From: Dehalococcoidia bacterium
GTDB lineage: Bacteria > Chloroflexota > Dehalococcoidia > Lucifugimonadales > UBA1123
Assembly: GCA_965242675.1 (NCBI GenBank)
Contig: CBDESW010000004.1
Coordinates: 301,862 to 365,861 of the forward strand
Reading direction: 5' to 3'
Length of the DNA stretch: 64,000 bases
Below are positions 10,947-45,309 of this stretch, in pieces. The notes beneath the pieces are model-generated. The model was not told the DNA's origin. It saw only the letters and a program-made list of their open reading frames with translations, and did no database searches. Both the position numbers and the translations under genes were made by a program. Position 1 is the first letter of the stretch; each line of letters begins with the position of its first letter.

Positions 10947-10973
10947 CCCGCCCGCGAACCGGAGAACGCCATT

Positions 10974-13292: not shown

Positions 13293-13303
13293 AACGCGCG
13301 CGC

Positions 13304-16996: not shown

Positions 16997-17085
16997 AACC
17001 CGCCCCAACGCGGCGGCGAACGGCGGGGCGCTCCGGGCGCGCGAGCGTCCGGGACGCCCCGTCCATCAAAGAGGAATGACGCCAA

Positions 17086-21924: not shown

Positions 21925-22917
21925 ATGAGAGAGAAGATAGAAGCCCTGCCAATCGGAAGGCGCTCGCTTAACGCGGCGGTCATCGCCGTCGCTCTGCTGG
22001 CGTTGCTTGGCGCGACCGCCCTGCTGTTCGGGGCGTGTCGGGGGGACCAGTCGGCGAGGACGACCATCAGCGCCGGCTGGGAGCATACCTGCGCGTTGCG
22101 GGAAGACGGCTCCGCGCGATGCTGGGGCGCCGATGACGTCGGTCAGTCGTCGCCGCCCAGAAACGATGTATTCACAACCATCAGCGCCGGCGGCCCGCAC
22201 GCCTGCGGGTTGCTGGAAGACGGCTCGGCGCGATGCTGGGGAGCGGAATCCAGCGACAGCGACTACGGCCAAGCGTCCCCGCCCAGAAACGAGACGTTCA
22301 AAGCCATCAGCGCCGGCAACGTTCACACCTGCGCGTTGCGGGAAGACGGCTCGGCGCGGTGCTGGGGAGCGGAATCCAACGACGGCGACGTTGGCCAGGC
22401 GTCCCCGCCCAGAAACGAGACGTTCAAAGCCATCAGCGCCGGCAGTTTGCACACCTGCGCGCTGCGGGAAGACGGCGCGGCGCTGTGCTGGGGAGTGGAG
22501 GACGACGATTTCGACTACGGCCAGGCGTCCCCGCCTAGAAATGAGACGTTCAAAGCCATCAGCGCCGGCGGGGCTCACACTTGCGGATTGCGGGAAGACG
22601 GCACGGCGCGATGCTGGGGCGCGGAGTCCAACCGAGTCGACTACGGCCAAGCGTCCCCGCCCAGAGATGAGACGTTCACAGCCATAAGCGCCGGCAGTTA
22701 TCACACCTGCGGGTTGCGGGCGGACCGCACGGCGCTGTGCTGGGGAAGAAATAATGACGAGCAAGCGTCCCCGCCCAGAAATGACGAGTTCATAGCCATC
22801 ACCGCCGGCGTCGAGCATACCTGCGCGCTGCGTTCGGACGGCACGGCGCGATGCTGGGGCGGCGACCGTTACGGTCAGGCGTCCCCGCGCAGAATCGACA
22901 CATTCGCCCTGCCCTGA
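21925..22917 (+). CDS. RCC1-repeat beta-propeller protein (about 6-7 blades), secreted or lipoprotein
   Basis: AAAGGAG SD 7 nt upstream. Signal peptide ending FGAC. Repeats of ISAGxxHTC(A/G)LREDGSARCWGAExxxxDYGQASPPRNETFKA. Confidence 0.85.
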   Translation: MREKIEALPIGRRSLNAAVIAVALLALLGATALLFGACRGDQSARTTISAGWEHTCALREDGSARCWGADDVGQSSPPRNDVFTTISAGGPHACGLLEDGSARCWGAESSDSDYGQASPPRNETFKAISAGNVHTCALREDGSARCWGAESNDGDVGQASPPRNETFKAISAGSLHTCALREDGAALCWGVEDDDFDYGQASPPRNETFKAISAGGAHTCGLREDGTARCWGAESNRVDYGQASPPRDETFTAISAGSYHTCGLRADRTALCWGRNNDEQASPPRNDEFIAITAGVEHTCALRSDGTARCWGGDRYGQASPRRIDTFALP

Positions 22918-22991
22918 TTCGGTCGCGCTCAGCCAACAGACCATCCGCGCGAGCGTTCAACAAGCCAACATGAGAGAGAGAGAGCCGCAAA

Positions 22992-25835
22992 ATGAAGTTC
23001 GGAGCGTCAACCCTAGCCCTAGCCATCATCATCCTCGCGTCGGCGCTTGCCTCGGCGTGCGGCGACCAGCGCCCGCCGCGCCCGCCCCGCCCGCCGCGCA
23101 TAGCGGTGGTCGACGCGCCGACGGCGACTCCCGCCCCCGAATCCGCGCGCTCGGCTCCAGCCGAAAGACCGCCCGCGCAAGCGCAAGCGTCGCCCGCATC
23201 CACGCAGACGCCTGCAATCCCGGCTACTCCCGCGCCGGAAATCCCGCCTGCGCCCGCGCCGCCCAAACTGACGCTCCAACCGACAAAGCAAACCATCAGC
23301 GCCGGCGGCGACGGGACCTGCGCGTTGCGCGATAATGGAACGGCGGTGTGCTGGGGGGATGCTTCGTCCCCCATTGGCGAGACTTTCACAACCATCAGCG
23401 CCGGCGATGATTCTAGTTATTCTGAAATCTGCGCGTTGCGCGCGGACGGCACAGCGTGGTGTGACGACTTGTCCCCGCCTATAGGCGAGACGTTCACAAC
23501 CGTCAGCGTCGGATATGACTACGCTTGCGCGTTGCGGGAAGACGGCTCGGCGGTATGCTGGGGAAGTGATAAAGCAGGGCGGTTGTCCCCGCCCGACGGC
23601 GAGACATTCGCGGCAATCAGCGCCGGCAATTCTCATACCTGCGCGTTGCGAGCGGACGGAACGGCGGTATGCTGGGGCGCGGAAGGCGACGAGTACGACA
23701 TTGGTCAGGCGTCCCCGCCCAGCGGCGAGACATTCGCCGCCATCAGCGCCGGCTACCGCCACACCTGCGCGTTGCGAGCGGACGGAACGGCGGTATGCTG
23801 GGGCGCGGAATCCAATCGAGTCGACTTCCGAGTCGACTACGGCCAAGCGTCCCCGCCCGACGGCGAGACATTCGTAGCCATCGGCGCCGGAGAACAACAC
23901 ACCTGCGCGTTGCGCGCGGACGGTTCAGCAAGATGCTGGGGGGATGGAAGAGGAGGTGTAACGTCCCCGCCCAGAGACGAGACCTTCGTTGCCATTGGCG
24001 TCGGCGGTCATCACACCTGCGCGTTGCGCGCGGATGGCGCGGCGGTATGCTGGGGGGATAGCCAATACGGTCGAACGGCCTCGCCCAGAGGCGAGACATT
24101 CGCGACGTCGTCGGCGAAAATTAAAATCGCGCCAGTCGAGCCGCCCGCGCCGGTCAATCTGACGGTCCATCCAACATCTAAAACCATCAGCTCCGGCAGC
24201 CGGCATACCTGCGGTTTGCGCGAGGATGGCGAGGCGATATGCTGGGGGGATAACGAAGATGATCAGTCGTCCCCGCCCAGCGGTGAGACATTCACATCCA
24301 TCAGCGCCGGCGTTCGGCACACCTGCGCGTTGCGCACGGACGGAACGGCGATATGCTGGGGGGATAACGAAGCCGGTCAGTCGTCCCCGCCGAGCGGCGA
24401 GACATTCGTTGCCATCAGCGCCGGCGATTGGCATACCTGCGGGTTGCGCGCGGACGGAACGGCGATATGCTGGGGGTGGAATGGTGAAGGTCAGGCGTCC
24501 CCTCCGAGCGGCGAGACATTCGCGGCGATCAGCGCCGGCGATTGGCACACCTGCGCGTTGCGCGCGGACGGAACGGCGATATGCTGGGGGAACAACTATC
24601 TCGGCCAGGCGTCACCGCCGAGCGGCGAGACATTCACAACCATCAGCGCCGGCGATTGGCACACCTGCGCGTTGCGCGCGGACGGAACGGCGATATGCTG
24701 GGGGAACAACGAAGACGGTGAGGCGTCCCCTCCGAGCGGCGAGACATTCGCGGCCATCAGCGCCGGCGATAAACACACCTGCGCGTTTAGAAAAGACGGC
24801 TCGGCGGTATGCTGGGGGGACAACGAAGACGGTCAGTCGTCCCCGCCCGACGGAGAGACGTTCGTAGCCATCAGCGCAGGCTCCGGGCATACCTGCGCGT
24901 TGCGCCTGGACGGCGTGGCGAGATGCTGGGGCCAGAACTATATTAGTCAGGCGTCCCTATCAAGCGGCGTGAAGATTGCGTCAGCAACGCCGTCCGAGCC
25001 GGTCAATTTGACGGTCCAACCGACAGTTAAAACCATCAGCGCCGGCGCTTGGCATACCTGCGGGTTGCGCGCGGACGGAACGGCGATATGCTGGGGGTGG
25101 AATGGTGAAGGTCAGGCGTCCCCGCCCAGCGGCGAGACTTTCGCAACCATCAGCGCCGGCTCTTACCACACCTGCGGGTTGCGCGCGGACGGAACGGCGG
25201 TATGCTGGGGAGGGGAAGGCGACGATAACATTGGTCAGTTGTCCTTGTCCCCGCCGAGCGGCGAGACATTCGCGGCCATCAGCGCCGGATTTGGGCATAC
25301 TTGCGGGTTGCGCGCGGACGGCGCGGCGATATGCTGGGGGTGGAACGAAGACGGTCAGTCGTCCCCTCCGAGCGGCGAGACTTTCGCGACTATCAGCGCT
25401 GGCTATCGGCATACCTGCGCGTTGCGCGCGGATGGAACGGCGCGATGCTGGGGGAGTGGCCAGACGTCCCCGCTGAGCGGCGAGACATTCATAGCCATCA
25501 GCGCTGAATTTGGGCATACCTGCGGGTTGCGCGCGGACGGAACGGCGCGATGCTGGTGGAGAGGCCAGTCGTCCCCGCTGAGCGGCGAGACATTCATAGC
25601 CATCAGCGCCGGATTTGGGCATACCTGCGCGTTGCGCCCGGACGGAACGGCGCGATGCTGGGGAGCGGAAGGCGGCGATTCTGATTATGGCCAGTCGTCC
25701 CCGCCGAGCGGCGAGACATTCGTAGCCATCAGCGCCGGATTTGGGCATACCTGCGCGTTGCGAGCGAACGGAACTGCGACATGCTGGGGGCGTAACGGAT
25801 CCCCGCCCGACGGCGTGACGTTCGCTCTGCCCTGA
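22992..25835 (+). CDS. Large RCC1-repeat protein (three propeller-sized blocks), lipoprotein
   Basis: Lipobox LASAC and a Pro/Ala linker. About 17 RCC1 repeats (ISAGDWHTCALRADGTAICWGxNxxGQ(A/S)SPPSGETF) fall in three blocks separated by KIAPVEPPAPVNLTVHPTSKTIS-type and KIASATPSEPVNLTVQPTVKTIS-type linkers. Confidence 0.85.
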   Translation: MKFGASTLALAIIILASALASACGDQRPPRPPRPPRIAVVDAPTATPAPESARSAPAERPPAQAQASPASTQTPAIPATPAPEIPPAPAPPKLTLQPTKQTISAGGDGTCALRDNGTAVCWGDASSPIGETFTTISAGDDSSYSEICALRADGTAWCDDLSPPIGETFTTVSVGYDYACALREDGSAVCWGSDKAGRLSPPDGETFAAISAGNSHTCALRADGTAVCWGAEGDEYDIGQASPPSGETFAAISAGYRHTCALRADGTAVCWGAESNRVDFRVDYGQASPPDGETFVAIGAGEQHTCALRADGSARCWGDGRGGVTSPPRDETFVAIGVGGHHTCALRADGAAVCWGDSQYGRTASPRGETFATSSAKIKIAPVEPPAPVNLTVHPTSKTISSGSRHTCGLREDGEAICWGDNEDDQSSPPSGETFTSISAGVRHTCALRTDGTAICWGDNEAGQSSPPSGETFVAISAGDWHTCGLRADGTAICWGWNGEGQASPPSGETFAAISAGDWHTCALRADGTAICWGNNYLGQASPPSGETFTTISAGDWHTCALRADGTAICWGNNEDGEASPPSGETFAAISAGDKHTCAFRKDGSAVCWGDNEDGQSSPPDGETFVAISAGSGHTCALRLDGVARCWGQNYISQASLSSGVKIASATPSEPVNLTVQPTVKTISAGAWHTCGLRADGTAICWGWNGEGQASPPSGETFATISAGSYHTCGLRADGTAVCWGGEGDDNIGQLSLSPPSGETFAAISAGFGHTCGLRADGAAICWGWNEDGQSSPPSGETFATISAGYRHTCALRADGTARCWGSGQTSPLSGETFIAISAEFGHTCGLRADGTARCWWRGQSSPLSGETFIAISAGFGHTCALRPDGTARCWGAEGGDSDYGQSSPPSGETFVAISAGFGHTCALRANGTATCWGRNGSPPDGVTFALP

Positions 25836-25907
25836 TTATCGGTCGCGTCCAGCCAACAATCCGTCAAGCGCGTTAGCCAAGCCAGCATGAGCGAGAAGAG
25901 CCGCAAA

Positions 25908-26939
25908 ATGAAGTTCGGAGCGTCAACCCTAGCCATAGCCATCATCATACTCGCGTCGGCGCTGGTTGCGGCATGCGCCGACCAGCCCGCGCCGCGACCG
26001 CCGCGACCGCCGCGCATAACGGTGGTCGAGCCGCCGACGGCGACTCCCGCGACCGAATCCGCGCGTTCGGCTCCAGCCGAAAAGCCGCCCGCGCAAGCGC
26101 CGGCTAAACTGACGCTCCAACCAACAAAGCAAGCCATCAGCGCCGGGTGGGAACACACCTGCGCGTTGCGCGAGGATGGAACGGCGACATGCTGGGGGGA
26201 TAACGAGGACGGTCAGTCGTCCCCGCCCAGCGGCGAGACGTTTGTAGCCATCAGCGCCGGCGGCGACCACACCTGCGCGTTGCGTGCAGACGGCGCGGCG
26301 ATATGCTGGGGGGATAACGGGGACGGTCAGTCGTCCCCGCCCAGCGGCGAGACGTTCGTTGCCATCAGCGCTGGCGCTTGGCATACCTGCGCTCTGCGCG
26401 CGGACGGCGCGGCGATATGCTGGGGGTGGAATGAATACAGTCAGTCGTCCCCGCCCAGTGGCGAGACGTTCGTTGCCATCAGTGCCCGCTGGTATCACAC
26501 CTGCGCGTTGCGCGAAGACGGCGCGGCGATATGCTGGGGGTGGAATGATGAAGGTCAGTCGTCCCCGCCCAGCGGCGAGACGTTCGTAGCCATCAGCACC
26601 GGCGACCACCACACTTGCGGGTTGCGCGCAGACGGCGAAGCGGTATGCTGGGGGCGTAACGATTACGGTCCGGCGTCCCCGCCGAGCGACGAGACGTTCG
26701 CCGCCATCAGCGCCGGCAACGCGCACACCTGCGCGTTGCGCGAGAACGGAACGGCGATATGCTGGGGAAACGACTCTTACGGCCAGTCGTCCCCGCTGAG
26801 CGACGATACGTTCGTAGCCATCAGCACCGGCGGCCACCACACTTGCGGGTTGCGCGCAGACGGCGAAGCGGTATGCTGGGGGCGTAACGACTACCGCCAG
26901 GCGTCCCCGCCCGGCGGCGTGACGTTCGCTCTGCCCTGA
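25908..26939 (+). CDS. RCC1-repeat beta-propeller lipoprotein
   Basis: Start set at the ATG at 25908 (MKFGASTLAIAIIILASALVAAC), which is homologous to the start of the 22992 gene. Seven RCC1 repeats. Ends in VTFALP like its paralogues. Confidence 0.85.
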   Translation: MKFGASTLAIAIIILASALVAACADQPAPRPPRPPRITVVEPPTATPATESARSAPAEKPPAQAPAKLTLQPTKQAISAGWEHTCALREDGTATCWGDNEDGQSSPPSGETFVAISAGGDHTCALRADGAAICWGDNGDGQSSPPSGETFVAISAGAWHTCALRADGAAICWGWNEYSQSSPPSGETFVAISARWYHTCALREDGAAICWGWNDEGQSSPPSGETFVAISTGDHHTCGLRADGEAVCWGRNDYGPASPPSDETFAAISAGNAHTCALRENGTAICWGNDSYGQSSPLSDDTFVAISTGGHHTCGLRADGEAVCWGRNDYRQASPPGGVTFALP

Positions 26940-28774: not shown

Positions 28775-30037
28775 TCACAGCAGCCGCCGACCGCTCCCTT
28801 CCGCCCCGTCGCGCCAGATTTTGACCGTCCCATACAGCCCGTCGTAGCCCGGCTCCACATGAATATCCCCGGCGCGTACTTTGGCGACGCCTTCCGCCAG
28901 GCGCTCGCCATGCGCGGGCAGGGCGGCGGCTAGGTCGGGGATGGGCGCGTCTAGCAGGACGGTTAGCTCGTTGCCGAAGGCGTCGGTCAGCGCCTTGTAC
29001 GCCGTTCGGACGCGCTTGGTTTTGACGCCGACGCCCAGCGTTTCGGATAAGACCTGTTCCAGCGATACAAGCGATCTGTACGGCGGGCGGGCGTTGTTGG
29101 GGTGTTCCATCATGCCGTCCGCGCGCCGGGTTGCCGCCGCGTCGCGTTGGGCGAGGGCGTCCACGCGCGCCGTGACGCCCAGCGTTAGGGGGCGTCCGCA
29201 TTTCGGGCAGCGGTCGCCGCCGTTCGCCGCCAATTCGCGCGGGGACAGGCTGACGCCGCAAGCGCGATGCCCCGAATTGTGATACTTGCCCTCTTCGGGG
29301 AAGAACTCCAGCGTGTGGGAGATTCGCCGGTTTCGCAGGGCGTCCATCAAGCCGCCGTAGCTCGGTTCGCCCTCGAAGGCGGTCAGCTCGCGCGCCAGTT
29401 TGGGCAGCGAGTGGGCGTCCGAGAACGATACGATTGCCTTGTCGTCAAGGTCTGGCACGCGCCAGCACATGGCGGGGTCGGCGGATAATCCGGTTTCGAC
29501 GGCGGGGATGAGCGGCGTCAAGTCGCCGAAAGCGCTTTCAAGCGAGTCAAAGCCGGATTTCGCGCCGAATATCCCGTACCAGGGCGTCCACGCATGCGCC
29601 GGGATGACGAAGCATCGCGGGTCGGCGTCCAGCATGAGCGCGAGCAGGTCGCGGGGCGGCATTGTGAGCGTGGGGCGTCCGTCGCCGTTCAGTTTCGCGC
29701 CGCGCGAGCGGAGCGCATTGTTTATCGCGCCGACCGCCGCCAGCGAGGGCGCGAACGCCAGCAGATGAACCCGCCGCCCGCGCCCGCCGACCCGCGCGAC
29801 GCAGCTCACTTCCGTCCCCAAGACGAACTTGACGCCGCCATGTTCGTAAACCCCATCGCCCGCTTCCGTCAACTTGCCGCGAGACTCCGCGAACCAGGCG
29901 GGATGCGTGAAATCGGCGGACGCCAGCATGTCCACGCCCTTGCGCCGCGCCCAGCGCGCCAGATTCTCGAAAGTCAATTCGCGGCTGGTGGCGTAGGCGT
30001 ATGATGAATGAATGTGCAAATCGGCGTAATAAGCCAT
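28775..30037 (-). CDS. Endonuclease Q-like PHP-domain nuclease (TIGR00375-type)
   Basis: Collinear with archaeal EndoQ as I remember it: YADLHIHSSY, GVKFVLGTEV, RVHLLAFAPSL, GDGRPTL, IPAHAWTPW, VETGLSADP, SFSDAHS, GKYHNSGHRAC, the zinc ribbon CPKCGRPLTLGVTARV, RPPYRSLVSLEQV, and a C-terminal GYDGLYG. Confidence 0.75.
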   Translation of the reverse strand: MAYYADLHIHSSYAYATSRELTFENLARWARRKGVDMLASADFTHPAWFAESRGKLTEAGDGVYEHGGVKFVLGTEVSCVARVGGRGRRVHLLAFAPSLAAVGAINNALRSRGAKLNGDGRPTLTMPPRDLLALMLDADPRCFVIPAHAWTPWYGIFGAKSGFDSLESAFGDLTPLIPAVETGLSADPAMCWRVPDLDDKAIVSFSDAHSLPKLARELTAFEGEPSYGGLMDALRNRRISHTLEFFPEEGKYHNSGHRACGVSLSPRELAANGGDRCPKCGRPLTLGVTARVDALAQRDAAATRRADGMMEHPNNARPPYRSLVSLEQVLSETLGVGVKTKRVRTAYKALTDAFGNELTVLLDAPIPDLAAALPAHGERLAEGVAKVRAGDIHVEPGYDGLYGTVKIWRDGAEGSGRRLL

Positions 30038-30438: not shown

Positions 30439-31170
30439 CTACGGAACATCCATCCCCTTCAGCCGGCGAACCGTCAGCGCGTAGAACAAGACGCATACCA
30501 GCGCCGCGCCCAGCATCGCGGCGGGCGGCTCTATGGCGCGGTCGGATAGGGCGGACAGATGCGCGGACGCATCCAACCAGTCCATCATGCCCAGCGCGTA
30601 GCCGCGAACGCTTAGGTAGCGCGCGCCGCCGATGAATGTCGCAACCGCCGCTTCCCACAAGAATACATAGACCAGCGCCAGCGCCAACGCGCGATTCGTG
30701 ACTAGCCCCAGCCAGGTGAATACGGAGCAGTAGGCGAACGACCCGATTGCCACCGAGAGGGCGATTGCGAGCGCCGTCCGCTCCGCGCCCGCGATTCCGC
30801 TCAGCTCGGCGTAAGCCGCCGCCCCCGCGCCCGCCGCCGTGAGCGGAACGGCTATCAGAGCCGGCGCGATGAGTTTGGCGAGCGCCGTCTTCCACCGCGC
30901 TATCGGCTGGAGCGCGATGAAACTGAGCGTCCGGTCTTCCATTTCGTTGCCGAGCGACGCCGTCGCCAGCGCCATGGCGACGATGGGCATGACTAGCCTT
31001 AGCACAAGCGCGTCCACCGTCATGTTGGCGAAGTCCTCATAACTCGCGTCGCCGGCGGCTTGGCGCGAGTAGATGGCGAGCGCGGCGGGCAGAAGCGCGA
31101 CCGCCCCTACTATGATGAGACGCCGCGCGCCCGCGAGCTGCCGCAATGTGAGCAAGATTATCTGCGCCAT
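30439..31170 (-). CDS. ABC-2-type transporter permease (module 2)
   Basis: 243 aa with about 6 TM segments. It starts 5 nt downstream of its cognate ATPase gene, on the same strand. Confidence 0.65.
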   Translation of the reverse strand: MAQIILLTLRQLAGARRLIIVGAVALLPAALAIYSRQAAGDASYEDFANMTVDALVLRLVMPIVAMALATASLGNEMEDRTLSFIALQPIARWKTALAKLIAPALIAVPLTAAGAGAAAYAELSGIAGAERTALAIALSVAIGSFAYCSVFTWLGLVTNRALALALVYVFLWEAAVATFIGGARYLSVRGYALGMMDWLDASAHLSALSDRAIEPPAAMLGAALVCVLFYALTVRRLKGMDVP

Positions 31171-31175: not shown

Positions 31176-32114
31176 CTAGCGCTCCACTATATATTCAAAG
31201 AGGCTTTCAAGCGATTCGTCCATCGGCTCCACCCGCGTCAGGCGGACGCCGGCGGCGCGCGACAGTCTTGGGAGCGCCGTCTGCAGCTCCGACACATTGC
31301 GGCTGTAGATGGTCAGCGCGCCGTCCCGCGCGACGCTCACGGAGTCCACCGAGTCCATCGCCACGACCGCCGCCGCCAGCGTTCGGGGCGCGTCCGCGAC
31401 CACGCGAACCTGATAGGCGCGCTCGTCCAGCGCCGCGCGTATCTCGCGGAAGCCGCCCTCCGCCGCCAGCTTGCCGCCCAGCATCAGCAGGATGCGCCCC
31501 GCCAGCGTCTCCACTTCCTCCAAAATGTGGGACGAAATGAGAATCGTCTTGCCGTCCGCCGCCAGCCGCTCCATGGCGTCCTGGAACTCGATGCGCTGCC
31601 GCGGGTCGGTGCCGTTCAGCGGCTCGTCCAGCATCACCACCTCCGGGTCGCCGACCAGGGCGGCGGCTAGTCGGATACGCTGGCGCATCCCCCGCGAGTA
31701 GCCGCCGACGCGCCTTTCTTGGGCGTCCGCCATGCCGACGTCGGCGATTGCGCGCGCCGCCCGCTCCGCCGCGTCCGGCAACCCGCGCATCTTGGCGGAC
31801 ATCTCGACAAGTCGACGCCCGGACAAAAACGGATACACAGTCTCGCGCTCCGGCATGAACGCCATTCGGCGGTACAGTTCCGGATTGTCGCGGACGGGCT
31901 CCCCCAAGACGCGCGCATCCCCCCGCGAGCAGGACGCCAGCCCCGCAATCATGTACAGCAAAGTAGTCTTGCCCGCGCCGTTCGGTCCGAGAAGCCCGGT
32001 GATTCCCGCGCGCGCCTCGAACGAAACGTCGTTCACCGCGACCACGTCGCCGTACCACTTGGACGCGCCGGAGACGGATATGGGGGCGGTCGCCCGCCCG
32101 CCGTTCGCGTTCAT
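31176..32114 (-). CDS. ABC transporter ATP-binding protein (module 2)
   Basis: Walker A GLLGPNGAGKTT, signature-like YSRGMRQR, Walker B VVMLDEPLNGTDP, H-loop SSHIL. Confidence 0.9.
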   Translation of the reverse strand: MNANGGRATAPISVSGASKWYGDVVAVNDVSFEARAGITGLLGPNGAGKTTLLYMIAGLASCSRGDARVLGEPVRDNPELYRRMAFMPERETVYPFLSGRRLVEMSAKMRGLPDAAERAARAIADVGMADAQERRVGGYSRGMRQRIRLAAALVGDPEVVMLDEPLNGTDPRQRIEFQDAMERLAADGKTILISSHILEEVETLAGRILLMLGGKLAAEGGFREIRAALDERAYQVRVVADAPRTLAAAVVAMDSVDSVSVARDGALTIYSRNVSELQTALPRLSRAAGVRLTRVEPMDESLESLFEYIVER

Positions 32115-32128
32115 TCCGCAATCCTCCG

Positions 32129-32246
32129 CAGGGGTATGTTCACCGAAATCATGCTTGAACTGAAGCCGACGTATCCCCTCTCCCTTGATGGGAGAGGGCT
32201 AGGGTGAGGGTGTTTGCGCCGCAAGGCGCAGTCCCGCGCGGATTGT
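32129..32246 (-). repeat. 118-nt two-hairpin repeat insertion flanked by a 31-bp direct duplication of the gene junction
   Basis: CCGCCGTTCGCGTTCATTC(C/G)GCAATCCTCCG occurs at 32098-32128 and again at 32247-32277 (30/31 identical). The insert contains CCCCTCTCCCTTGATGGGAGAGGGCTAGGGTGAGGGTG and TGCGCCGCAAGGCGCA. Confidence 0.85.
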
Positions 32247-32259
32247 CCGCCGTTCGCGT

Positions 32260-33159
32260 TCATTCGGCAATCCTCCGATAGCGATTCCACAGCAACGCGG
32301 CGGGGACGACCGCGACGACGGTGTACCACCCAATCGCCGCCGCCGTCGGCAGGTTGCCGTCTAGCGAATCGTCGTAAGTTCCGAAAATTATGTCGTTCAC
32401 ACTGACCTGCGCGCTGCCCGCGTCTATCAGCGTCGCCCACGCCCCGACGCTTTCGGCGAGTACGGCGGCGGCTATGCCGGTGAAAACAAACGCGCCGATT
32501 ACGGCGACGGAGGCGTAAGCGCGGCGCGGCGTGAAGGCGGCGACGGCGAGCGGGATGGTCGTGGTGACGACCGCGACCGCCGCCCCAGCGCCCAGCGAGC
32601 GGGGGAAGTCCAGCCAGTTGTCGCGCAGATACTCCAGCGGCTCCGGCGCCGCCATCGTCAAGCCCGCCAAAAGCAGCGCCTGGCCGGAGTATATCAGCGC
32701 CAGGCTGACCGCGAAGAACGCCGTCCACCGCCCGATTACGTAATCGGCGGCGGTGAGAGGGCGCGCGAAGTACAGATGAATCACGCCGTCGCGCCTGTCG
32801 GGGCAAAGCAGCTCCGGCGCGATTATCGCGGCGAAGACGAGCAGAACGGGCGAGACGTTGCGATAGTACTCGTCCGCGCCCGGCAGGTCGATGATGTCCG
32901 GGACGCCGCCGAAGTCCGAGAAAAGCCCGTTGACGATTATCAGAAACGCCGCCGGCGCCATCGCCGCGCCGAAGAACAGAATCATCAGCGCCTTCTGCCA
33001 CGCGCCGCGCCCCAGTCCGAAGCAGGTTCGGACGCCGTTGGCGAACAGCGCCCGCCGCGCCCGCGCCCGTCCCTCGCGCGCGCCCGCGTAACGGCGATAG
33101 CCGAGATCGAACACCCGCCCGCCGCCGCCTTCCCGCGCGCCCGCGCCGCCGCCGTTCAC
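32260..33159 (-). CDS. ABC transporter permease (module 1)
   Basis: GTG at 33159 overlaps the ATPase stop (GTGA). The N-terminus RVFDLGYRRYAGAREGR is typical of this permease class, followed by about 6 TM segments. The longer ORF-track N-terminus overlaps the ATPase gene and is rejected. Confidence 0.7.
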   Translation of the reverse strand: MNGGGAGAREGGGGRVFDLGYRRYAGAREGRARARRALFANGVRTCFGLGRGAWQKALMILFFGAAMAPAAFLIIVNGLFSDFGGVPDIIDLPGADEYYRNVSPVLLVFAAIIAPELLCPDRRDGVIHLYFARPLTAADYVIGRWTAFFAVSLALIYSGQALLLAGLTMAAPEPLEYLRDNWLDFPRSLGAGAAVAVVTTTIPLAVAAFTPRRAYASVAVIGAFVFTGIAAAVLAESVGAWATLIDAGSAQVSVNDIIFGTYDDSLDGNLPTAAAIGWYTVVAVVPAALLWNRYRRIAE

Positions 33160-34064
33160 GCCCGCCCCCGCCTGAAAATCTCGGCGAGCCGCCGCCGCCG
33201 CGGACCGAGACGCCGCAACCGAGCGCCGGCGTCCACTAGGGCGTCGCGGATATGGTCGTACTCGGCGTCGCCCACACCCTGCACGGCGACGGAGCCGCCG
33301 TCCATCGCCGCCGCCAATCCGCGCGCGGACAGCGCCGCGATTAGGTCGTCCGCGCCGCCGTCGACGTCGATGAACACGGTTTCGCTCTCCGCCGTGAACC
33401 CGGCGACTTCGCCCGATTCCGAAACGCGCCCGCCTTCCAAAACGATGATGCGGTCGCAAGTCGTCTCCACGTCGCCCATGAGATGGGTTGAAAGCACGAC
33501 GCTGACGCCGAACTCGCGCCCCGCCCGCCGTATCAGCGCCAGCATCTCATCGCGCCCGACGGGGTCTAGCCCGGCGGTCGGCTCGTCGAGAAAGACCACC
33601 GCCGGGTCGTGAACCAGCGCCTGCGCCAGCTTGACGCGCTGAATCATGCCGGTGGAGTACTCGCCGATGGGACGGTAGCGCTCTTCGTCGAGCGCGACGT
33701 GCCGCAGGGTGTCCGCCGCCCGCGACCGCGCCGCGTCCGGCGGCAAGCCGCTAATCTGCGCCATGTGCGTGAGGAATTCGGACGCGCTCACGCCGGACGG
33801 CAGGCAATCGTGTTCCGGCATATACCCCATCCGCGCGCGAACCTCCACATTCCCGCCCGCGCTCTCGCCCAAAACCAGCGCCTCGCCGCTCGTGGGAGCC
33901 AGCAACCCCAGAAACAGCTTGATGGCGGTGCTTTTCCCCGCGCCGTTGGGTCCCAGCAAGCCGGTAATCCCGCGCTCCACCGTGAAACTGACGCCGTCCA
34001 GCGCGGCGACATTGCGGTAATTCTTGCGAAGCTCGCGGGCTTCCAGCAGGGGCGGGGAAGACAT
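33156..34064 (-). CDS. ABC transporter ATP-binding protein (module 1)
   Basis: Walker A GLLGPNGAGKST, signature-like YSTGMIQR, Walker B VVFLDEPTAGLDP, H-loop STHLM. Confidence 0.9.
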   Translation of the reverse strand: MSSPPLLEARELRKNYRNVAALDGVSFTVERGITGLLGPNGAGKSTAIKLFLGLLAPTSGEALVLGESAGGNVEVRARMGYMPEHDCLPSGVSASEFLTHMAQISGLPPDAARSRAADTLRHVALDEERYRPIGEYSTGMIQRVKLAQALVHDPAVVFLDEPTAGLDPVGRDEMLALIRRAGREFGVSVVLSTHLMGDVETTCDRIIVLEGGRVSESGEVAGFTAESETVFIDVDGGADDLIAALSARGLAAAMDGGSVAVQGVGDAEYDHIRDALVDAGARLRRLGPRRRRLAEIFRRGRA

Positions 34065-34210: not shown

Positions 34211-34385
34211 TTGTCAGAATCAGGATTAAAGGATTTATAGGATTTCGCATCGTTGACCCCTCGCTCTTCGCCGTAACCGTAAATCCCGCCAAGCCGAATA
34301 TGGACGAGCGCCTGCCTATCTGGCAAAGACGCGCGCCAGGCGAATCCTGAAAATCCTTTAATCCTGAAAATCCTGATTCTGACAA
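34211..34385. mobile_element. MITE-like element, copy 2
   Basis: TIRs TTGTCAGAATCAGGATT (34211-) and AATCCTGATTCTGACAA (-34385). The subterminal regions contain several GGATT/AATCC motifs. No ORF. Confidence 0.75.
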
Positions 34386-34444
34386 GATGCATGCCCTTGC
34401 AAATCCTTGATTTCTCAGGTTGAACAGAGAAGGACGTCGAAATT

Positions 34445-35059
34445 ATGAAAAGAGGAATGAAACTGCCGCACCCCGGCGCGTCCATACTGCACTTCTGCCT
34501 AGAGCCGCTCGGATTGAGCGTCGCCCAAGGCGCGGACGCGCTCGGCGTGAGCGTAGAGAGTCTGTCGGACGTCATCTACGGGCGCGCCGGCATATCGCCT
34601 GAGATGGCGATTCGCCTCGACAAGGCGTTCGGCGGCAACTCGGAGACTTGGCACAAGGTCCAAGCCGCCTACGACATGGACAAGGCGCTTGAAAGGACGG
34701 GCAGCGTACAAGCGGACTGCGCGGCGGCGGATTATGGCGAAAGGAACGGCAAAATGATGAAAAGAGGAATGAAACTCCCCCATCCCGGCGAATCCATACT
34801 ACTCGACTGCCTAGAGCCGCTCGGCTTGAGCGTCGACAAGGGCGCGGACGCGCTCGGCGTAAGCGTCAAGCATCTGTCGGACGTCATCGACGGGCGCGCC
34901 GGCATATCGCCGGAGATGGCGATTCGTCTCGACAAAGCCTTCGGCGGCGGCGCGGAGACTTGGCACAGGATCCAAGCCGCCTACGACATGGACAAAGCGC
35001 TTGAGAGGGCGGACGACATACAGGTGGCGCGCGTAGCGGCGGCTGGGGCAGCGGACTAA
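34445..35059 (+). CDS. Fused tandem HigA-family antitoxin-like HTH protein (two XRE HTH domains)
   Basis: Two near-identical halves, each [11 protein letters not shown](A/E)[61 protein letters not shown]. The second half begins at ATG 34757 and keeps its own SD-like leader. Confidence 0.8.
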
Positions 35060-37601: not shown

Positions 37602-37832
37602 CTAGGCAGTGTTGACATAAGGATAGTTTGGAAGATTCTCGCGCCAAAATCTCCAATTCCCTCCCTTGCAAAGGTATGTTCATGGAAAACAAGCCCGAAT
37701 CGCGAGCGATGAATCCCCTCTCCCTTGATGGGAGAGGGCTAGGGTGAGGGTGTCTGCGCCGCTAGGCGCAGTCCCGCGTGGGTTTGCCCGCCGCCCTCGC
37801 TCACTCTTCTCTCTAATGTCAACACAGCCTAG
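37602..37832. repeat. 231-bp segment bounded by 18-19-bp inverted repeats
   Basis: CTAGGCAGTGTTGACATA (37602-37619) versus TAATGTCAACACAGCCTAG (37814-37832). It encloses a copy of the two-hairpin repeat (37711-37781). Single copy in this window. Confidence 0.5.
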
Positions 37833-37851: not shown

Positions 37852-37973
37852 TTGCCAGAATCAGGATTTGCGGGATTATACGATTCTCAGAATTCTCCCG
37901 GCGCGCGTTTTCGACTGGCAAGCGCAAGTTTGGCGAACGAAATCCCGCCCGCCCCGCAATCCTGATTCCAACA
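37852..37973. mobile_element. MITE-like element, copy 3 (degenerate)
   Basis: TTGCCAGAATCAGGATT (37852-) and AATCCTGATTCCAACAC (-37973). Shorter than copies 1 and 2, with mismatched termini. Confidence 0.55.
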
Positions 37974-38243: not shown

Positions 38244-40169
38244 ATGTCGAAAGTTGCGAATTGGACAGCGGTTTCAGTCTTGGCGGCGCTTCTGCTGGCG
38301 CTGGCGGCGGCTTGCCAGAGTAGCGAGCCGGCGGCTCCGGCGGGCGCGTCGGCGGCGGACGTGACAGCCGCAATCGAGCAGGCGATGGCGTCCCAGCAGC
38401 AGGGGGCGTCCGCCGACGAAGTGGCGGCGGCGGTGCAGGCGGCTATGGCTGAACAGCCCGGCGTCACGGAGGAGGACATTCAGGCGGCGGTCGAGGCGGC
38501 AGTCGAGGAAGCGGTCGAAGCCGCCGTCGCGCGGGCCGTCCCAGCCGCCCCCGCCCCGATGATGGGCGGCGACATGGACAGATACGGCGGCACCCTGCTC
38601 TACGGCATGGGCCCCAACGTCGAGCATCTCTTCCATCTCACCTACAGCGGCGGCGCCTGCGCGGCGTGGTGCATGACCGTCGGCGACCCGCTCACCGCAT
38701 ACGGGCCCGACTCCGAGCATGTGCCGGAGAAATCCATCGCCGAATCGTTCACCATGAGCGACGACAGCAAGACGATAACCTTCAGCCTCAAGTCCGGCGT
38801 GAAGTTCCACGACGGCACGGACGTGACGGCGGACGCCGTGAAGTTCAGCCTCGAGTTCGTGCTGGACAAGAACAACGGCGCGGTGACGCGCCCCGCCATC
38901 GAAGCGATTAGCCAAGTGGACGCGGTGGACAACCTCACCGTCGCCATAACCACCTCCGAAGTGTTCGCGCCCATCATCACCAACTTGGGGATGACCGCCG
39001 GCATGCCGGTGTCGCCGACCGCCTTCGAAGAGCGCGGCAAGGACGGCCTGGAAGCGGACGGAACGGTCTCGACCGGCCCGTTCATGATCGAGGAATGGGT
39101 GTCCGGCAGCCACATAGACTACGTGAAGTTCGAGGATTACCACCGCGACGGCATGCCGTATCTGGACGGCTGGCGCTGGGTGGTGATACCGGACGACCAG
39201 GTCCGCGCCGCCGCGCTTCAGGCGGACAACATACACGCCGCCGGCATCGCCCACTCGGCGCTGGACGCCATAGCCGCGTCCCGCGACGTGATGGGGATAC
39301 AGGAATTCAAAGGCTTCGCCGGCCCCCGCATGGACCACTTCAACGCCGCCCGCGCGCCGTTCGACGACATCCGCGTCCGCCAAGCGGCGCAGATGGCGAT
39401 GGACCGCCACGCCTGGAATCAGGCGATGACCGGCGGGGAAGGCTTCGTCTATCGCGGCTCGCTCGTCCCGCCCAACCACGCCGCCAGCTTCCAGGTGCCG
39501 GAGGACGAATACCCATACGCCTACAACCCGGAGCGCGCCCGCGAGCTGCTGGAAGAGTACGCGAGCGACATGGGAATCTCCCTTCCGATAAGCGAAATGG
39601 CGGCGTTCACCTGTTCGGCGGAGCAGAAAGAGCAGGGCTGCATAGACCTGCCGGCGCGCCCGATAACCATTACGACCTCGTCCAGCGCCAACAACATACG
39701 CCGCGCCGAAATCTCCAAGGCGTACTACGACGCGGTCGGCTTCGAGGTCGAAATGGACATCGGCTCCGGGGACGAAGCCAAGCGGACGTTCGTGACCAAA
39801 GAGGCGAGCTTCTCGCTGAGGGGCTTCGGACTGCGCCCGCATCCGTCGGGGACGTTCAACTCCTATCTCGGCATGGGCGGCTACTGGAACAACGGCGGCT
39901 GGGGAACCAGCGAAGCGCAGATCGAAATCGACCGCCTAGTGCGAAAGGCGGCGCAGACGTTCGACCCCGCCGATCAGAACTACCTCTACCAGCAGGCGCA
40001 GCGCCTCTACATGGAGAACGCGCTGGGCGGAGTCCGCACCTCCGCCAACCCGTCCTACCACTTCATGCAGTCGTCGGTGAGATGGGCGGAATACCCCGAC
40101 CCCAAGTGGGTCAAGTACCCGTCCGACGCCTCGCTGAAGATTCACGACGTGTGGCTGGAGGATAACTAG
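38244..40169 (+). CDS. ABC transporter substrate-binding lipoprotein, family 5 (peptide/nickel type), locus 1
   Basis: Lipobox LAAAC with an Ala-rich linker. Family-5 SBP length and layout, with motifs such as ITFSLKSGVKFHDGTDVTADAVKFSLE and PFMIEEWVSGSHIDYVKFEDY. Confidence 0.85.
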   Translation: MSKVANWTAVSVLAALLLALAAACQSSEPAAPAGASAADVTAAIEQAMASQQQGASADEVAAAVQAAMAEQPGVTEEDIQAAVEAAVEEAVEAAVARAVPAAPAPMMGGDMDRYGGTLLYGMGPNVEHLFHLTYSGGACAAWCMTVGDPLTAYGPDSEHVPEKSIAESFTMSDDSKTITFSLKSGVKFHDGTDVTADAVKFSLEFVLDKNNGAVTRPAIEAISQVDAVDNLTVAITTSEVFAPIITNLGMTAGMPVSPTAFEERGKDGLEADGTVSTGPFMIEEWVSGSHIDYVKFEDYHRDGMPYLDGWRWVVIPDDQVRAAALQADNIHAAGIAHSALDAIAASRDVMGIQEFKGFAGPRMDHFNAARAPFDDIRVRQAAQMAMDRHAWNQAMTGGEGFVYRGSLVPPNHAASFQVPEDEYPYAYNPERARELLEEYASDMGISLPISEMAAFTCSAEQKEQGCIDLPARPITITTSSSANNIRRAEISKAYYDAVGFEVEMDIGSGDEAKRTFVTKEASFSLRGFGLRPHPSGTFNSYLGMGGYWNNGGWGTSEAQIEIDRLVRKAAQTFDPADQNYLYQQAQRLYMENALGGVRTSANPSYHFMQSSVRWAEYPDPKWVKYPSDASLKIHDVWLEDN

Positions 40170-40289: not shown

Positions 40290-40892
40290 CCCCCGTCATT
40301 CCCGCGAAAGCGGGAATCCAGAGTCCACCAACAACGTCATCCTCGCGAAAGCGGGGACAAGATAGCCATCCGAAATCAACCTTGAATCGCAATCAACAAA
40401 TCCCTTCGCCCTTGATGGGCTTGCAGGGGTATGTTTGGCGGATTTAGGCGCGAATTGGGCGCTTTTCGCCGCTTTCGCGCCCCCTCCGCCCGTCATTCCC
40501 GCGAAGGCGGGAATCCAGAAAGACCAACCAAGACCGCCACTTGAAATCAGGCTTGAACTGAAGCCGACGTATCCCTTCTCCCTTGATGGGAGAAGGTTAG
40601 GATGAGGGTGTGTCCGCGCCGCTAGGCGCAGGTTCGCCGCCGCCCGCATTTGTCAGAATCAGGATTTTCGGGATTAAAGGATTTTCAGGATTCCCCAACG
40701 CGCGTTTTCTCAGGGAAAGCGCTTGTCGGGCGAATCGAAATCCTGCAAATCCCCAAATCCTGAAAATCCTGATTCTGACAAACCGCGCTCAACCGATAAC
40801 CAACAACCGCAAACCAGCCGCGCGGCGCTTTTCGATTCATCGTTGGCGTCCGCGACCTTCTGGATTCCCGCTTTCGCGGGAATGACGGGGGG
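40290..40892. repeat. About 600-bp patchwork of all three repeat families between the SBP and permease genes
   Basis: Hairpin copies at 40290-40321, 40488-40518 and 40860-40892 (reverse), plus a variant at about 40334-40362. AATCCCTTCGCCCTTGATGGGCTTGCAGGGGTATGTTT at 40399-40436. Two-hairpin unit at 40571-40630. MITE-like copy 4 at 40649-40781. Confidence 0.85.
40649..40781. mobile_element. MITE-like element, copy 4
   Basis: TTGTCAGAATCAGGATTTTCGGG (40649-) and CCTGAAAATCCTGATTCTGACAA (-40781), giving TIRs of at least 22 bp with 1 mismatch. Confidence 0.75.
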
Positions 40893-40939
40893 ATAAAAAG
40901 CAACCAATAACTAGCCACTGGACACCACCCCCAAACGCC

Positions 40940-42798: not shown

Positions 42799-42823
42799 GG
42801 AGGATTTCGGTTTTGTTCTACTC

Positions 42824-42971
42824 CGTTATTTCCGCGAAGGCGGGAATCCAGAGAAGACAACCAACCCAACGACCGGAAATCAAGCGCGAATAACAACCAA
42901 CAAATCCCCTCTCCCTTGATGGGAGAGGGCTAGGGTGAGGGTGCCTGCGCCGTAAGGCGCAGTCCCGCGCG
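42824..42971 (+). repeat. Hairpin variant plus two-hairpin repeat copy
   Basis: CCGTTATTTCCGCGAAGGCGGGAATCCAG at 42824-42851. AATCCCCTCTCCCTTGATGGGAGAGGGCTAGGGTGAGGGTGCCTGCGCCGTAAGGCGCAGTCCCGCGCG at 42903-42971. Confidence 0.85.
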
Positions 42972-43014
42972 ACAAAGGCGAACGGACGAATTTCCCCAAA
43001 TTCGCCCCAAACGC

Positions 43015-43057
43015 TTGACAAACCGCGATTTCAGGAATAGTATTGCCGAAATCGCGG
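43015..43057 (+). promoter_or_regulatory. Sigma70-type promoter with an overlapping 10-bp inverted repeat (candidate operator) for SBP locus 2
   Basis: TTGACA (43015-43020), a 17-nt spacer, then TAGTAT (43038-43043). CCGCGATTTC (43023-43032) and GAAATCGCGG (43048-43057) bracket the -10 box. Confidence 0.55.
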
Positions 43058-43125
43058 AGAGCGCGGGCATTTCAGACGATGCGCGCGCGACGCGAGACGT
43101 TCGACTGACTAAAGGAGGTTGGCTG

Positions 43126-45309
43126 ATGAGTTTCAAGAGATTTGGGAGGATAGCGCTCCCGCTCGCGCTAGTGACGGCGCTGTTCGTCGCGGCGGCATGC
43201 GGCGGCGCGACGCAGGAGGGAGAAGCCGCTCCGACGGCGGCCCCGTCCCAGCCGGCCCCCGCGCCGACGACGGCCCCTGCGATGCCGGCTCCCACAACCG
43301 CGCCCGCCGCGCCCGCGATGGCGGAGGAACCCGCCATCGGCTCAGCGCTCATCGGGACGCTTGAAGGACCCAAAGTCATAGACGACGAGAGCATGTGGCC
43401 TACCTCGTTCAACGAAGCTCCGCAGTTCGCGGACCTCGTAGCCGCCGGCGAGTTGCCCCCCGTGGCGGAGAGAATCGGCGAAGACCCGCTCGTCATCGAA
43501 CCCGTACACGAAATAGGGCAGTACGGCGGCGTCTGGCGCAGAGGGTTCAGCGGACCCGCCGACAAGTGGAACGGATACCGCTGCTGCACCGGCACAGACC
43601 ACGTCCTCTATTGGGACTACACGGGGGCGACGCCGAGGCCGAACATCGTCAAGGATTGGGAAGCCGGCGCGGACGGCATGGAATTCACTCTGCACCTTCG
43701 CGAGGGCATGAAGTGGTCGGACGGCGAGCCGTTCACGGCGGACGACTTCGTCTTCTGGTACGAATACATGCACAACAACGAAGAGCTGATACCCGTGAAA
43801 TCGTCTTACTTCCAGACGGACAGCGGGGCGGGAACGCTGGAGAAGGTCGACGACTACACGGTCAAAGTAACCTTCCCGGATCCGTACTACCTGTTCATAG
43901 ACGTTCTCGCGGGGTCGACGCATCTGGGCGGACACGCCTATCAGGGGCTGAACGCGCGCGGCATGTTCGCCCCGGCGCACTACATGCAGCAGTTTCACCC
44001 GGACTTCGTCGGCGAGGATGAGCTGAACCAGATGGTGGCGGACGAAGACTTGGACAACTGGGTGACGCTGTTCAAGCAGAAGAACGACTGGGCGATCAAC
44101 CCGGAGCTGCCCGTAGTCACGCCCTGGAAGACGGTGATTCCCATAACCGAGCCGACTTGGGTGCTGGAGCGCAACCCGTACAGCATCTGGGTGGACACGG
44201 AAGGCAACCAGTTGCCCTACATAGACAAGGTGATCTTCACCGTGTTCGAGAACTTGGAGGTTCACAACCTGCGAGCGGTGGCGGGCGAATACGACATGCA
44301 GGCGCGCCACGTCGACATCCAGAAGGTGCCGGTGTTCTTGGAGAACGAGGAAGCGGGGCAGTACAAGCTCTACCTCGACCCCGGCGACTACGGCTCCGAC
44401 ATGCAGGTGAAAATCAACAAGAGTTACGAGGACGACCCGGAGGTCGGCGGCCTTCTGCGGAACGTGGACTTTCGGCGCGCGCTTTCCATGGGCGTCGACC
44501 GCGACCAGATCAGCGAGACGTTCTTCCTCGGCATAGCGCCCCCCCGAAGCGTCGCTCCGGTGGAATCCAACGAGTGCTACCCCGGCAAGGAATACGAGCT
44601 CAAGTGGCACACATTCGACCCCGACCAAGCCAACGCGCTGCTGGACGGGCTTGGATACACGGACAAAAACGCCAACGGAATCCGCATGCGGAAAGACGGC
44701 AACGGACCCCTGACGATTGAAGTCACCACGCTGGGCGGCCAGTTCGTTCAGTACACCCAGATCATGGAAGCGATCAAGGGGCAGTGGGAGGACATCGGGG
44801 TAGGTCTGGACGTCAAAGAGGTCGAGCGCAGCCTGGCGGCTCAGATATACAGGGCGAATCAGCATCAGCTCGCCGCTTGGAACAACGACGGCAGCGAGCA
44901 TCTGTTCACCTTCCCGGGCCACGTCTTCCCGTTCGCTCAGGGAAGCTCCGGCGGCACGTTGCTGGGGCTGTGGTTCCAGTCCAACGGCGAGGACGGCATG
45001 GAGCCTCAGCCGTACCTGAAGAAGATAATGGAGAACTGGCGCAGGGGCTTCGGCGTGCCTAAGGATGAGCGCGTCGCGCTCTGCAAGGAAGTCTGGGAAC
45101 TGGCGGTCGACAACGTCAACAACATCGGCATAGTCGGCCCCGGTCCGGCCTCGATGGGCGTGAGAATCGTCAAGACCGACATGGGCAACATCCCGTCGCG
45201 CCACTACAACAGCCCGGACGGCAAAACGCCCGGCATCTCCCGCCCGGTGACGTTCTTCTGGAAGAGCGCGGAAAACGCCGCGCGCCAGCAGCTCGAAATC
45301 GAGAAGTAG
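43126..45309 (+). CDS. ABC transporter substrate-binding lipoprotein, family 5, locus 2
   Basis: ATG at 43126 after AAAGGAGG. Lipobox VAAAC and a Pro/Ala linker. Large family-5 SBP (MEFTLHLREGMKWSDGEPFTADDFVFWYEYM). Confidence 0.85.
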   Translation: MSFKRFGRIALPLALVTALFVAAACGGATQEGEAAPTAAPSQPAPAPTTAPAMPAPTTAPAAPAMAEEPAIGSALIGTLEGPKVIDDESMWPTSFNEAPQFADLVAAGELPPVAERIGEDPLVIEPVHEIGQYGGVWRRGFSGPADKWNGYRCCTGTDHVLYWDYTGATPRPNIVKDWEAGADGMEFTLHLREGMKWSDGEPFTADDFVFWYEYMHNNEELIPVKSSYFQTDSGAGTLEKVDDYTVKVTFPDPYYLFIDVLAGSTHLGGHAYQGLNARGMFAPAHYMQQFHPDFVGEDELNQMVADEDLDNWVTLFKQKNDWAINPELPVVTPWKTVIPITEPTWVLERNPYSIWVDTEGNQLPYIDKVIFTVFENLEVHNLRAVAGEYDMQARHVDIQKVPVFLENEEAGQYKLYLDPGDYGSDMQVKINKSYEDDPEVGGLLRNVDFRRALSMGVDRDQISETFFLGIAPPRSVAPVESNECYPGKEYELKWHTFDPDQANALLDGLGYTDKNANGIRMRKDGNGPLTIEVTTLGGQFVQYTQIMEAIKGQWEDIGVGLDVKEVERSLAAQIYRANQHQLAAWNNDGSEHLFTFPGHVFPFAQGSSGGTLLGLWFQSNGEDGMEPQPYLKKIMENWRRGFGVPKDERVALCKEVWELAVDNVNNIGIVGPGPASMGVRIVKTDMGNIPSRHYNSPDGKTPGISRPVTFFWKSAENAARQQLEIEK

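Follow-up and report, generated by a model that had tools for sequence, protein, structure and literature searches.

Repetitive extragenic palindromic (REP) sequences are short, GC-rich palindromes that combine into so-called bacterial interspersed mosaic elements (BIMEs) at extragenic or intercistronic positions, for example in the malE-malF region of Escherichia coli. Long target duplications are known from insertion sequences of the IS1634/IS1549 type, and a repeat is also duplicated when a CRISPR spacer is integrated. The BoxC/PIT/TM motif, a sequence able to form an intrastrand triplex, was reportedly studied by Bergler (1992) and by Hoyne and Maher (2000). In the survey of Holder et al. 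2015 (PMC4666352), the motif (TM) was always intergenic and had no mobility genes near its sites, the intergenic regions marked by it had undergone rearrangement at a much higher frequency than controls, and the authors discussed stalling of polymerases, slippage, and breaks as the cause of this instability. Mycobacterial interspersed repetitive units (MIRUs), as the work of Supply et al. 1997 is summarized in PMC12548453 and PMC3184786, are repeats that insert at start codons and carry an internal open reading frame (ORF) coupled to the host gene at -4. Here, we analyzed a 64,000-nucleotide (nt) stretch of DNA from a Dehalococcoidia bacterium (the whole stretch is called the window below), in which a 118-nt mosaic repeat unit splits the overlap between two genes of an ABC-2 (ATP-binding cassette) transporter operon and is flanked by two copies of the gene junction. 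Judging from the sequence, we consider it about 70% probable that this arrangement goes back to one insertion of a mosaic unit of ~120 nt, during which 25 to 31 nt of the junction would have been re-copied by a single template switch or by staggered-break repair.

The repeat family resembles REPs and BIMEs in that many imperfect palindromes are combined in extragenic mosaics, and other copies (40.3-40.9 kb, 42.8-43.0 kb) separate a gene for a solute-binding protein from permease genes. Unlike in REPs, the core of the present unit is a three-block triplex motif and not a simple palindrome. With BoxC/TM it shares the three blocks and short loops of TMECO type A, the intergenic location, and strain-variable surroundings, which are seen here as filled and empty alleles at the junction and as differing mosaics in relatives of 93-95% identity. 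In contrast to the described BoxC/TM sites, however, the motif is one module of a lineage-specific unit of 118-122 nt with a second hairpin and defined ends, and this copy lies inside an operon, at a -4 overlap, between copies of a 25-31-bp duplication. No description of such a flanking duplication at an intra-operon -4 overlap was found for BoxC/TM. The element is a lineage-specific addition to a known class, the REP-like mosaics that contain BoxC/TM.

A split gene junction with filled and empty alleles

The host operon comprises four genes on the minus strand in the order ATPase-permease-ATPase-permease and is conserved in Dehalococcoidia. ABC ATPase 1 (302 amino acids; 33156..34064; Pfam ABC_tran, E 8.8e-27) comes first and is followed by ABC-2 permease 1 (299 amino acids; 32260..33159; ABC2_membrane_2), whose GTG start overlaps the ATPase 1 stop (GTGA). 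The translation of permease 1 is identical to the collection protein P0322 and ends in ...RYRRIAE-TGA, with the stop at 32262-32260. On the other side of the insertion lie the intact genes for ABC ATPase 2 (312 amino acids; 31176..32114; ABC_tran, E 2e-25) and ABC-2 permease 2 (243 amino acids; 30439..31170; ABC2_membrane_4 and ABC2_membrane_2). The insertion separates the two ATPase-permease pairs, and neither pair is split.

The junction between permease 1 and ATPase 2 is held in a 31-mer, CCGCCGTTCGCGTTCATTC(C/G)GCAATCCTCCG, of which the window contains exactly two copies (32098-32128 and 32247-32277) that differ at one C/G position. In dinucleotide shuffles, the expected number of matches was 0, even with 3 mismatches allowed. 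The 118 nt between the two copies (32129-32246) are a member of the repeat family. In the mRNA sense, the upstream copy (32247..32277, minus strand) contains the real permease 1 stop and a remnant ATG (32263-32261), and the downstream copy (32098..32128, minus strand) contains a remnant ...RRIAE-TGA and the real ATPase 2 ATG (32114-32112). The Shine-Dalgarno (SD) sequence GGAGG was duplicated too, because it is part of the 31-mer, 8 nt before the ATG (32276-32272 upstream, 32127-32123 downstream). The two 31-mers around a 118-nt repeat copy, the minus-strand stop/start junction with its ATGA, and the positions of the remnant and real codons had been described in an earlier note on this DNA, and all were reproduced here.

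Empty sites were found in the relatives. Seven metagenome contigs of 82-95% nucleotide identity (L163-L167, L170, and L171) each have a single junction copy, CGCTATCGGAGGATTGC(C/G)GAATGAAC or something close to it, in which the genes overlap directly in the NTGA manner and the repeat is absent. The closest, L170 and L171, show 95% identity to the window across ATPase 1 and permease 1, which rises to 100% in the initial 50-64 nt of ATPase 2; the identity is 91-94% for L165, L166, and L167, 88-90% for L163, and 82-85% for L164. The GCC variant in the upstream 31-mer copy is the state of L163, L165, L166, and L167, and the GCG variant in the downstream copy is the state of L170 and L171. In distant Dehalococcoidia, the permease 1 stop and ATPase 2 start overlap or nearly touch at the junctions read among 40 listed loci (ATGA in L082, L084, and L104; GTGA in L083; TTGA in L089), and no insertion was present at any of these junctions. 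The earlier note had expected one copy of the 31-mer with a direct ATGA junction in orthologous operons lacking the element, and the relatives indeed have one junction copy with a direct ATGA, GTGA, or TTGA overlap.

A filled site was found in contig L162, an independent assembly from another sample. Here, too, this repeat occupies the junction, and it is followed by the downstream junction copy and by an ATPase 2 that is 97% identical in protein and 95.6% identical in DNA to that of the window; the two inserts diverge by about 12%. Given the single-copy junctions in relatives and the filled site in L162, the insertion is real and varies between strains. When the window, L162, and L165-L167 are compared pairwise, their ATPase 2 genes are 94.6% to 96.2% identical, and the two carriers are not mutual closest relatives; therefore, the filled allele segregates in a population of ~95% identity. 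The pattern of filled and empty sites could stem from recombination, or the insert could have been lost precisely, more than once, by way of the direct repeats. The ratio of nonsynonymous to synonymous substitution rates (dN/dS) between the window and L162 is 0.09 for ATPase 2 and 0.14 for permease 2, so that the genes downstream of the insertion are still in use, and purifying selection on them continues in the carriers. The empty sites confirm the proposal that an element split the -4 (ATGA) junction of an ABC-2 permease and the next ATPase and duplicated that junction. The further proposal that the family is, or was, mobile is borne out by the filled and empty alleles, in the sense of a family that is mobile or unstable.

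The mosaic repeat unit and its triplex core

The inserted unit (32129..32246, plus strand) belongs to repeat family D16, whose five window copies lie at 5617-5733, 32128-32244, 37668-37784, 40526-40642, and 42859-42975. What is said here of the composite unit is based on the window and 10 ENA/Logan contigs. All five window copies are located between ORFs, and the junction copy is located between two cistrons. The unit begins on the left with a T module, CTTGCARGGGTATGTT; a spacer leads to the triplex motif, which is followed by a second hairpin and the right terminus GGATTGCCCGCCG. At the junction, the left end is a shortened T module, CAGGGGTATGTT, as compared with the consensus; the L162 insert starts at the first base of the T module (CCTCCG followed by CTTATAGGGG) and retains 4 extra nt (CTTA) at its left end, which the window has lost. 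The second hairpin, TGCGCC-GCAA-GGCGCA (32215..32230, plus strand), was found by folding as a 6-bp stem and shows compensating changes between copies (CTGCGCC/GGCGCAG, CCGCGCC/GGCGCGG, and GCCGCGC/GCGCGGC; alignment A7). On the right, the family terminus GGATTGTCCGCCG at 32240-32252 reaches 6 nt into the right 31-mer, and a conserved terminus GGATTGCCCGCC(G) is given by the family termini in c37668, L168a, and L168b. Thus, the right-hand 31-mer may open with 5-6 bases that belong to the element, in which case only 25 nt of target, and not 31, would truly have been duplicated.

The mRNA of the insert is predicted to fold into two stable hairpins (-43.8 kcal/mol, z -2.8). REPs serve as barriers at mRNA 3' ends or cause differential expression; by analogy, this would be a likely effect of the present insert, and its hairpins could protect the upstream half of the transcript. 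A promoter/terminator scan detected neither a promoter nor a terminator in the insert. Rfam gave no matching family for the insert at gathering or permissive thresholds, only weak chance matches, and the composite pattern TAGGGTGAGGGTGNNTGCGCCNNNNGGCGCAG had 0 matches in the GTDB genome set and the JGI metagenomes.

The window holds 6 T modules, 9 copies of a third hairpin module, GTCATTCCCGCGAARGCGGGAATCC, and 5 composites. Mosaic arrays at 5.28-5.74 kb and 40.29-40.89 kb combine the modules, the third hairpin module included, in a REP/BIME-like manner. Mosaic content differs strongly among the 93-95% relatives, both upstream of ATPase 1 and downstream of the solute-binding-protein gene, and the spacer upstream of ATPase 1 is rearranged too much among them for clean filled/empty pairs. 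In comparison with the 93.5%-identical contig L168 (5864-5870), the window has an extra 171-nt unit at 40420-40590, directly after ...CCCTTGATGGG of a triplex motif. This unit consists of a T module, the hairpin module, a spacer, and half a triplex motif, and it gives a D-E-D' arrangement, with 62-nt flanks that are only 74% alike. A 172-nt periodic array at 5283-5733 is similar in arrangement. The repeats at 40290-40900 stand between the solute-binding-protein gene (38244-40169) and the permease genes (40940 onwards) of a peptide-type ABC operon, and those at 42820-42980 precede the second solute-binding-protein gene of the same operon (43015-45309), a placement reminiscent of the REPs between malE and malF.

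By its sequence, the core at 32176..32212 (plus strand), CCCTCTCCC-TTGAT-GGGAGAGGG-CTA-GGGTGAGGG-TG, is the known BoxC/PIT/TM intrastrand-triplex motif. Its three 9-nt blocks are identical to those of E. coli TMECO no. 2, CCCTCTCCC-TTGA-GGGAGAGGG-TTA-GGGTGAGGG (Holder et al. 2015, PMC4666352 Table 1), and the loops differ. As the definition of the motif has it, a pyrimidine block is followed by a complementary purine block and by a third, G-rich mirror block, with loops of 1-6 nt. Four of the five window copies contain the 37-nt core CCCTCTCCCTTGATGGGAGAGGGCTAGGGTGAGGGTG without a change, and over 80 exact occurrences of this 37-mer were found in metagenome-assembled genomes (MAGs) of Dehalococcoidia and some others. 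A blastn search with 32172-32214 matched 5408 of 5426 complete E. coli genomes, at a median of 17 places in each and at 80-99% identity, mostly 90-95%. Literature matches to the motif string GGGTGAGGGTG were mostly telomere-PCR primers, and a longer string led to PMC4666352.

Covariation was also observed within the motif. In four family copies, a C-to-T change in block 1, a G-to-A change in block 2, and a G-to-A change in block 3 make up one antiparallel purine-motif triad, in which the hairpin pair of block 1 position 3 and block 2 position 7 has block 3 position 3 as its partner. Two genome-collection scans covering many phyla (L172-L291 and L292-L410) provided raw counts, taken irrespective of common descent. 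Among the matches listed, 127 of 130 T:A hairpin pairs had A as the block 3 partner (G in 3), and all 133 of 133 C:G pairs had G (A in 0). The same covariation was noted in the window at 32176-32212 and 40574-40610 and in L163, L164, and L169, and several untargeted variants at other triad positions follow the same mirror rule. The text of Holder et al. (PMC4666352) contains no mention of it. As a comparative signal, the covariation would support selection on the DNA's triplex-forming potential. In L007 (~4865-4935), another Dehalococcoidia MAG, the 11-mer CTCCATAAGTC stands directly before an exact triplex motif and recurs 10 nt after it, directly before a second, different triplex-type motif; the insertion of a triplex motif may here have left a short duplication on its flanks.

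Origin of the duplication and the relay frame

The native ATPase 2 coding sequence contains GCCCGCCG at 32096..32103 (plus strand), directly left of the duplicated 25 nt. These 8 nt are identical to the consensus right terminus of the family and are a candidate microhomology. A growing strand that had copied the junction would have switched to a repeat copy elsewhere and copied to the end of that repeat; it would then have re-annealed via GCCCGCCG, upstream of its departure point, and the junction would have been copied again. The same product would result if a staggered break were repaired with a captured fragment. Such an event is made plausible by the polymerase stalling and the destabilized surroundings that are reported for triplex-forming TM motifs. 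After such an event, the upstream copy would keep the permease stop, and the downstream copy would keep the SD sequence and the ATPase start. The insertion was tolerated because the permease stop, the SD sequence, and the ATPase start survived in the duplicated junction. Only an insertion that regenerated all three could have persisted here, and selection would explain why this one is seen.

The family as a whole lacks such duplications. In the 6 other composite copies, the longest word shared by the two flanks is 5-6 nt, against a null median of 5, and the flanks of 84 other exact-core copies are null-like; of the 85 exact-core copies in all, only the one at the junction has a long flanking repeat. 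The earlier suggestion that the family creates or captures long flanking duplications, which was to be checked at other copies, does not hold for the 6 composite and 84 exact-core copies. We infer that the duplication was a one-off event, probably guided by microhomology, and not a transposase footprint of the family.

Several points weigh against this account. The event is single, and from sequence its mechanism is beyond proof. At the left junction there is at most 1-2 nt of microhomology with the usual T-module context. The region upstream of the repeat in L162 is an FtsZ region, only 79.5% identical to 54.5-56.1 kb of the window, so that only the window shows the filled allele's junction on the permease side. 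In addition, both flanks of the copy at 37654-37806 are similar to the 31-mer, which a template switch explains incompletely: its right flank matches in register at 8 of 13 positions (P about 0.007) and its left reads CAAT..CCTCC. In unanchored local alignments, the two flanks are not significant (P 0.28 and 0.59). A copy like that at 37.7 kb could have been the donor of the insertion, with homeology choosing the target; more speculatively, it could be a descendant by circular permutation of a 149-nt unit. An orthologous empty site for this copy was not found, as the relatives L168 and L169 that share the solute-binding-protein gene have other upstream neighbors. A 20-nt inverted repeat (90% complementary; 37602-37621 and 37813-37832) brackets the 37.67-kb copy, which looks as though it had entered a second palindromic element at the loop. 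As for L162, the 4.3-kb scaffold opens (1-113) in a repeat copy 95% identical to the window insert, and its FtsZ region is joined across repeat elements (1792-1953) to the ATPase 2 region, with 93% identity. L162 is probably a chimeric scaffold joined at repeats, with a real rearrangement as the alternative. An origin in which a tandem 31-bp duplication came first and the insertion struck its boundary later was rejected as less parsimonious, for it needs a positional coincidence of about 1 in 31.

The duplicated junction also opens a small reading frame. This 50-codon ORF, MNANGGQSARDCALRRKHPHPSPLPSRERGYVGFSSSMISVNIPLRRIAE (32111..32263, minus strand; no Pfam match), starts at the remnant ATG, which overlaps the permease 1 stop, and its own stop (32113-32111) overlaps the ATPase 2 ATG, so that ATGA overlaps stand at both ends. 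The frame and its translation are as the earlier note had quoted them. Since the ORF inherits the same SD sequence, ATG, and -4 overlap as the ATPase 2 start had before the insertion, it is probably translated; ending on the ATPase 2 ATGA, it would be able to hand ribosomes on, which is plausible for this one allele. It could even be a selected adaptation that keeps permease 1 and ATPase 2 coupled after the insertion, as proposed for MIRUs. Several observations fit such a role: the -4 overlaps at both ends, the SD sequence duplicated together with the start, the purifying selection on the downstream genes in carriers, and the fall of translational coupling with distance (review PMC12548453), so that a relay would help over 149 nt.

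This relay idea is not new, as MIRUs are a published precedent: in both cases a unit lies between operon genes and a small ORF overlaps the neighbors' stop and start at -4, an arrangement thought to make insertion tolerable. As MIRUs are described in PMC12548453 and PMC3184786, the ORF is a feature of the units and filled sites have 4-nt direct repeats. Here, in contrast, a comparison of 6 copies, one of them the L162 orthologue, showed an open frame in only 3, with the stops in closed copies coming from TAG in the hairpin 2 loop, and the duplication is 25-31 nt long and unique to the junction copy. The sister allele L162, the only other carrier, lacks the ORF: its insert has stops in every frame, and the frame in phase with the TGA reaches back only 13 codons. 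The phase of the window's frame (149 nt, equal to 2 modulo 3) depends on the window-specific loss of 4 nt from the T module, whereas an intact T module would add 153 nt and put the remnant ATG in phase with the ATPase start. Moreover, ATPase 2 can presumably initiate directly on its own duplicated SD sequence. The chance of the right phase and an open frame is roughly 1/3 x 1/2. The ORF therefore looks like a by-product rather than a selected feature, with a geometry accidental to this allele (a chance of ~1 in 6), and a selected relay is unlikely; the meaning that the earlier note had seen in the open frame is not supported, and the findings at other copies correspond to what that note had itself named as refuting the frame and the duplication habit. 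We speculate that the 4-nt loss and the L162 stops were favored as preventing a 51-residue N-terminal extension of the ATPase.

The 31 bp might instead be a true target-site duplication, produced by a transposase or integrase whose cuts in the two strands were staggered by about 25-31 nt. In favor of this, the locus has a clean D-X-D structure, and the insert runs from a module boundary (base 1 of the T module in L162) to the conserved family terminus. As in IS1634/IS1549 elements and CRISPR integration, a segment stands between direct repeats of tens of bp; unlike in those systems, there is here no transposase, no Cas1, and no terminal inverted repeat, and the other copies have no duplications. 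The 16 window ORFs scanned against Pfam include no transposase, and TM sites have no mobility genes nearby (PMC4666352). No terminal inverted repeats join the ends of 32129-32252 (CTTGCA... and ...GCCCGCCG); neither these nor a target-site duplication of constant length at all copies, the marks of miniature inverted-repeat transposable elements and DDE transposons, were found in the family. The 8-nt identity of element end and target is better explained by annealing, and long-stagger cutting is improbable as the source. The broader claim that the 25-31-bp duplication is the footprint of a dedicated entry of TM units, whether they come in through cuts with a long stagger or as a small circle that integrates, seems distinctly improbable. 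If it were true, the repeat family would enter overlapping junctions without damage and carry the host's SD/start module elsewhere.

An integrating circle would have as its mobile unit 149 nt, the insert plus one 31-mer, released as a circle or tandem unit by recombination between the 31-mers and re-integrating elsewhere. The copy at 37654-37806 could be read as a circularly permuted descendant, with 31-mer positions 22-31 on the left and 1-19 on the right; the local alignment extends from 32119 to 32265 and so takes in 10 nt of the left 31-mer and 19 nt of the right one. The in-register matches of its right flank lie beyond the family terminus, and four of the five mismatches there are transitions. 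However, the unanchored flank alignments given above are not significant, CCGCCG is part of the family terminus anyway, only one candidate descendant exists, and a 37.7-kb-like donor with a target chosen by microhomology explains the resemblance equally well. We hold the circle to be very improbable. Mis-assembly across the repeat as the source of the insert and of the second 31-mer is scarcely credible: relatives' contigs do break at or near the junction (L170, L171, and L162), and L162 seems chimeric upstream of the repeat, but L162 independently joins the repeat to the downstream junction and ATPase 2, with the ~12% divergence of an orthologous neutral insert, the two 31-mers differ at one base, and both flanking genes are complete.

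Neighboring genes and meaning of the insertion

Other features of the window were recorded alongside. A 420-amino-acid ORF (28775-30037, minus strand) immediately downstream of the operon has no Pfam match at E 0.01. On the plus strand, the ORF at 34445-35059 contains an internal tandem duplication (34427-35038; 300 nt, 84% identity) and encodes a product of 204 amino acids in which an HTH_3 (Xre/HigA-like) domain occurs twice; L170 has this two-domain gene as well, at the same length. Five consecutive paralogous genes (345-408 amino acids) made of PD40 (TolB-like beta-propeller) repeats with a 132-nt period occupy 6390-12152, and another lies at 17076-18635. Large RCC1-repeat genes extend over 21925-26939, with 19 repeats in the 947-amino-acid ORF at 22992-25835; their DNA has a very regular 114-nt periodicity, and neighboring units are 75-86% identical. 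A separate family of AATCAGGATTTTCGGGATTAAAGGATTTTCAGGATT-type units, an inverted repeat with 44-nt arms, was found at 40649-40782, 37858-37968, 34262-34385, and 13096-13300, and also in the relatives L168 and L169.

As we read it, this locus offers a clean natural example of a -4 gene overlap absorbing an insertion through duplication of the junction, dated by empty sites in 95%-identical strains. It ties the BoxC/TM motif, a proposed cause of local instability, to a concrete rearrangement with a microhomology signature, and it places the motif in sponge-associated-type Dehalococcoidia MAGs, within operon-internal mosaic repeats. The triad covariation across phyla is perhaps of wider interest, as it would mean that triplex-forming potential itself is conserved.

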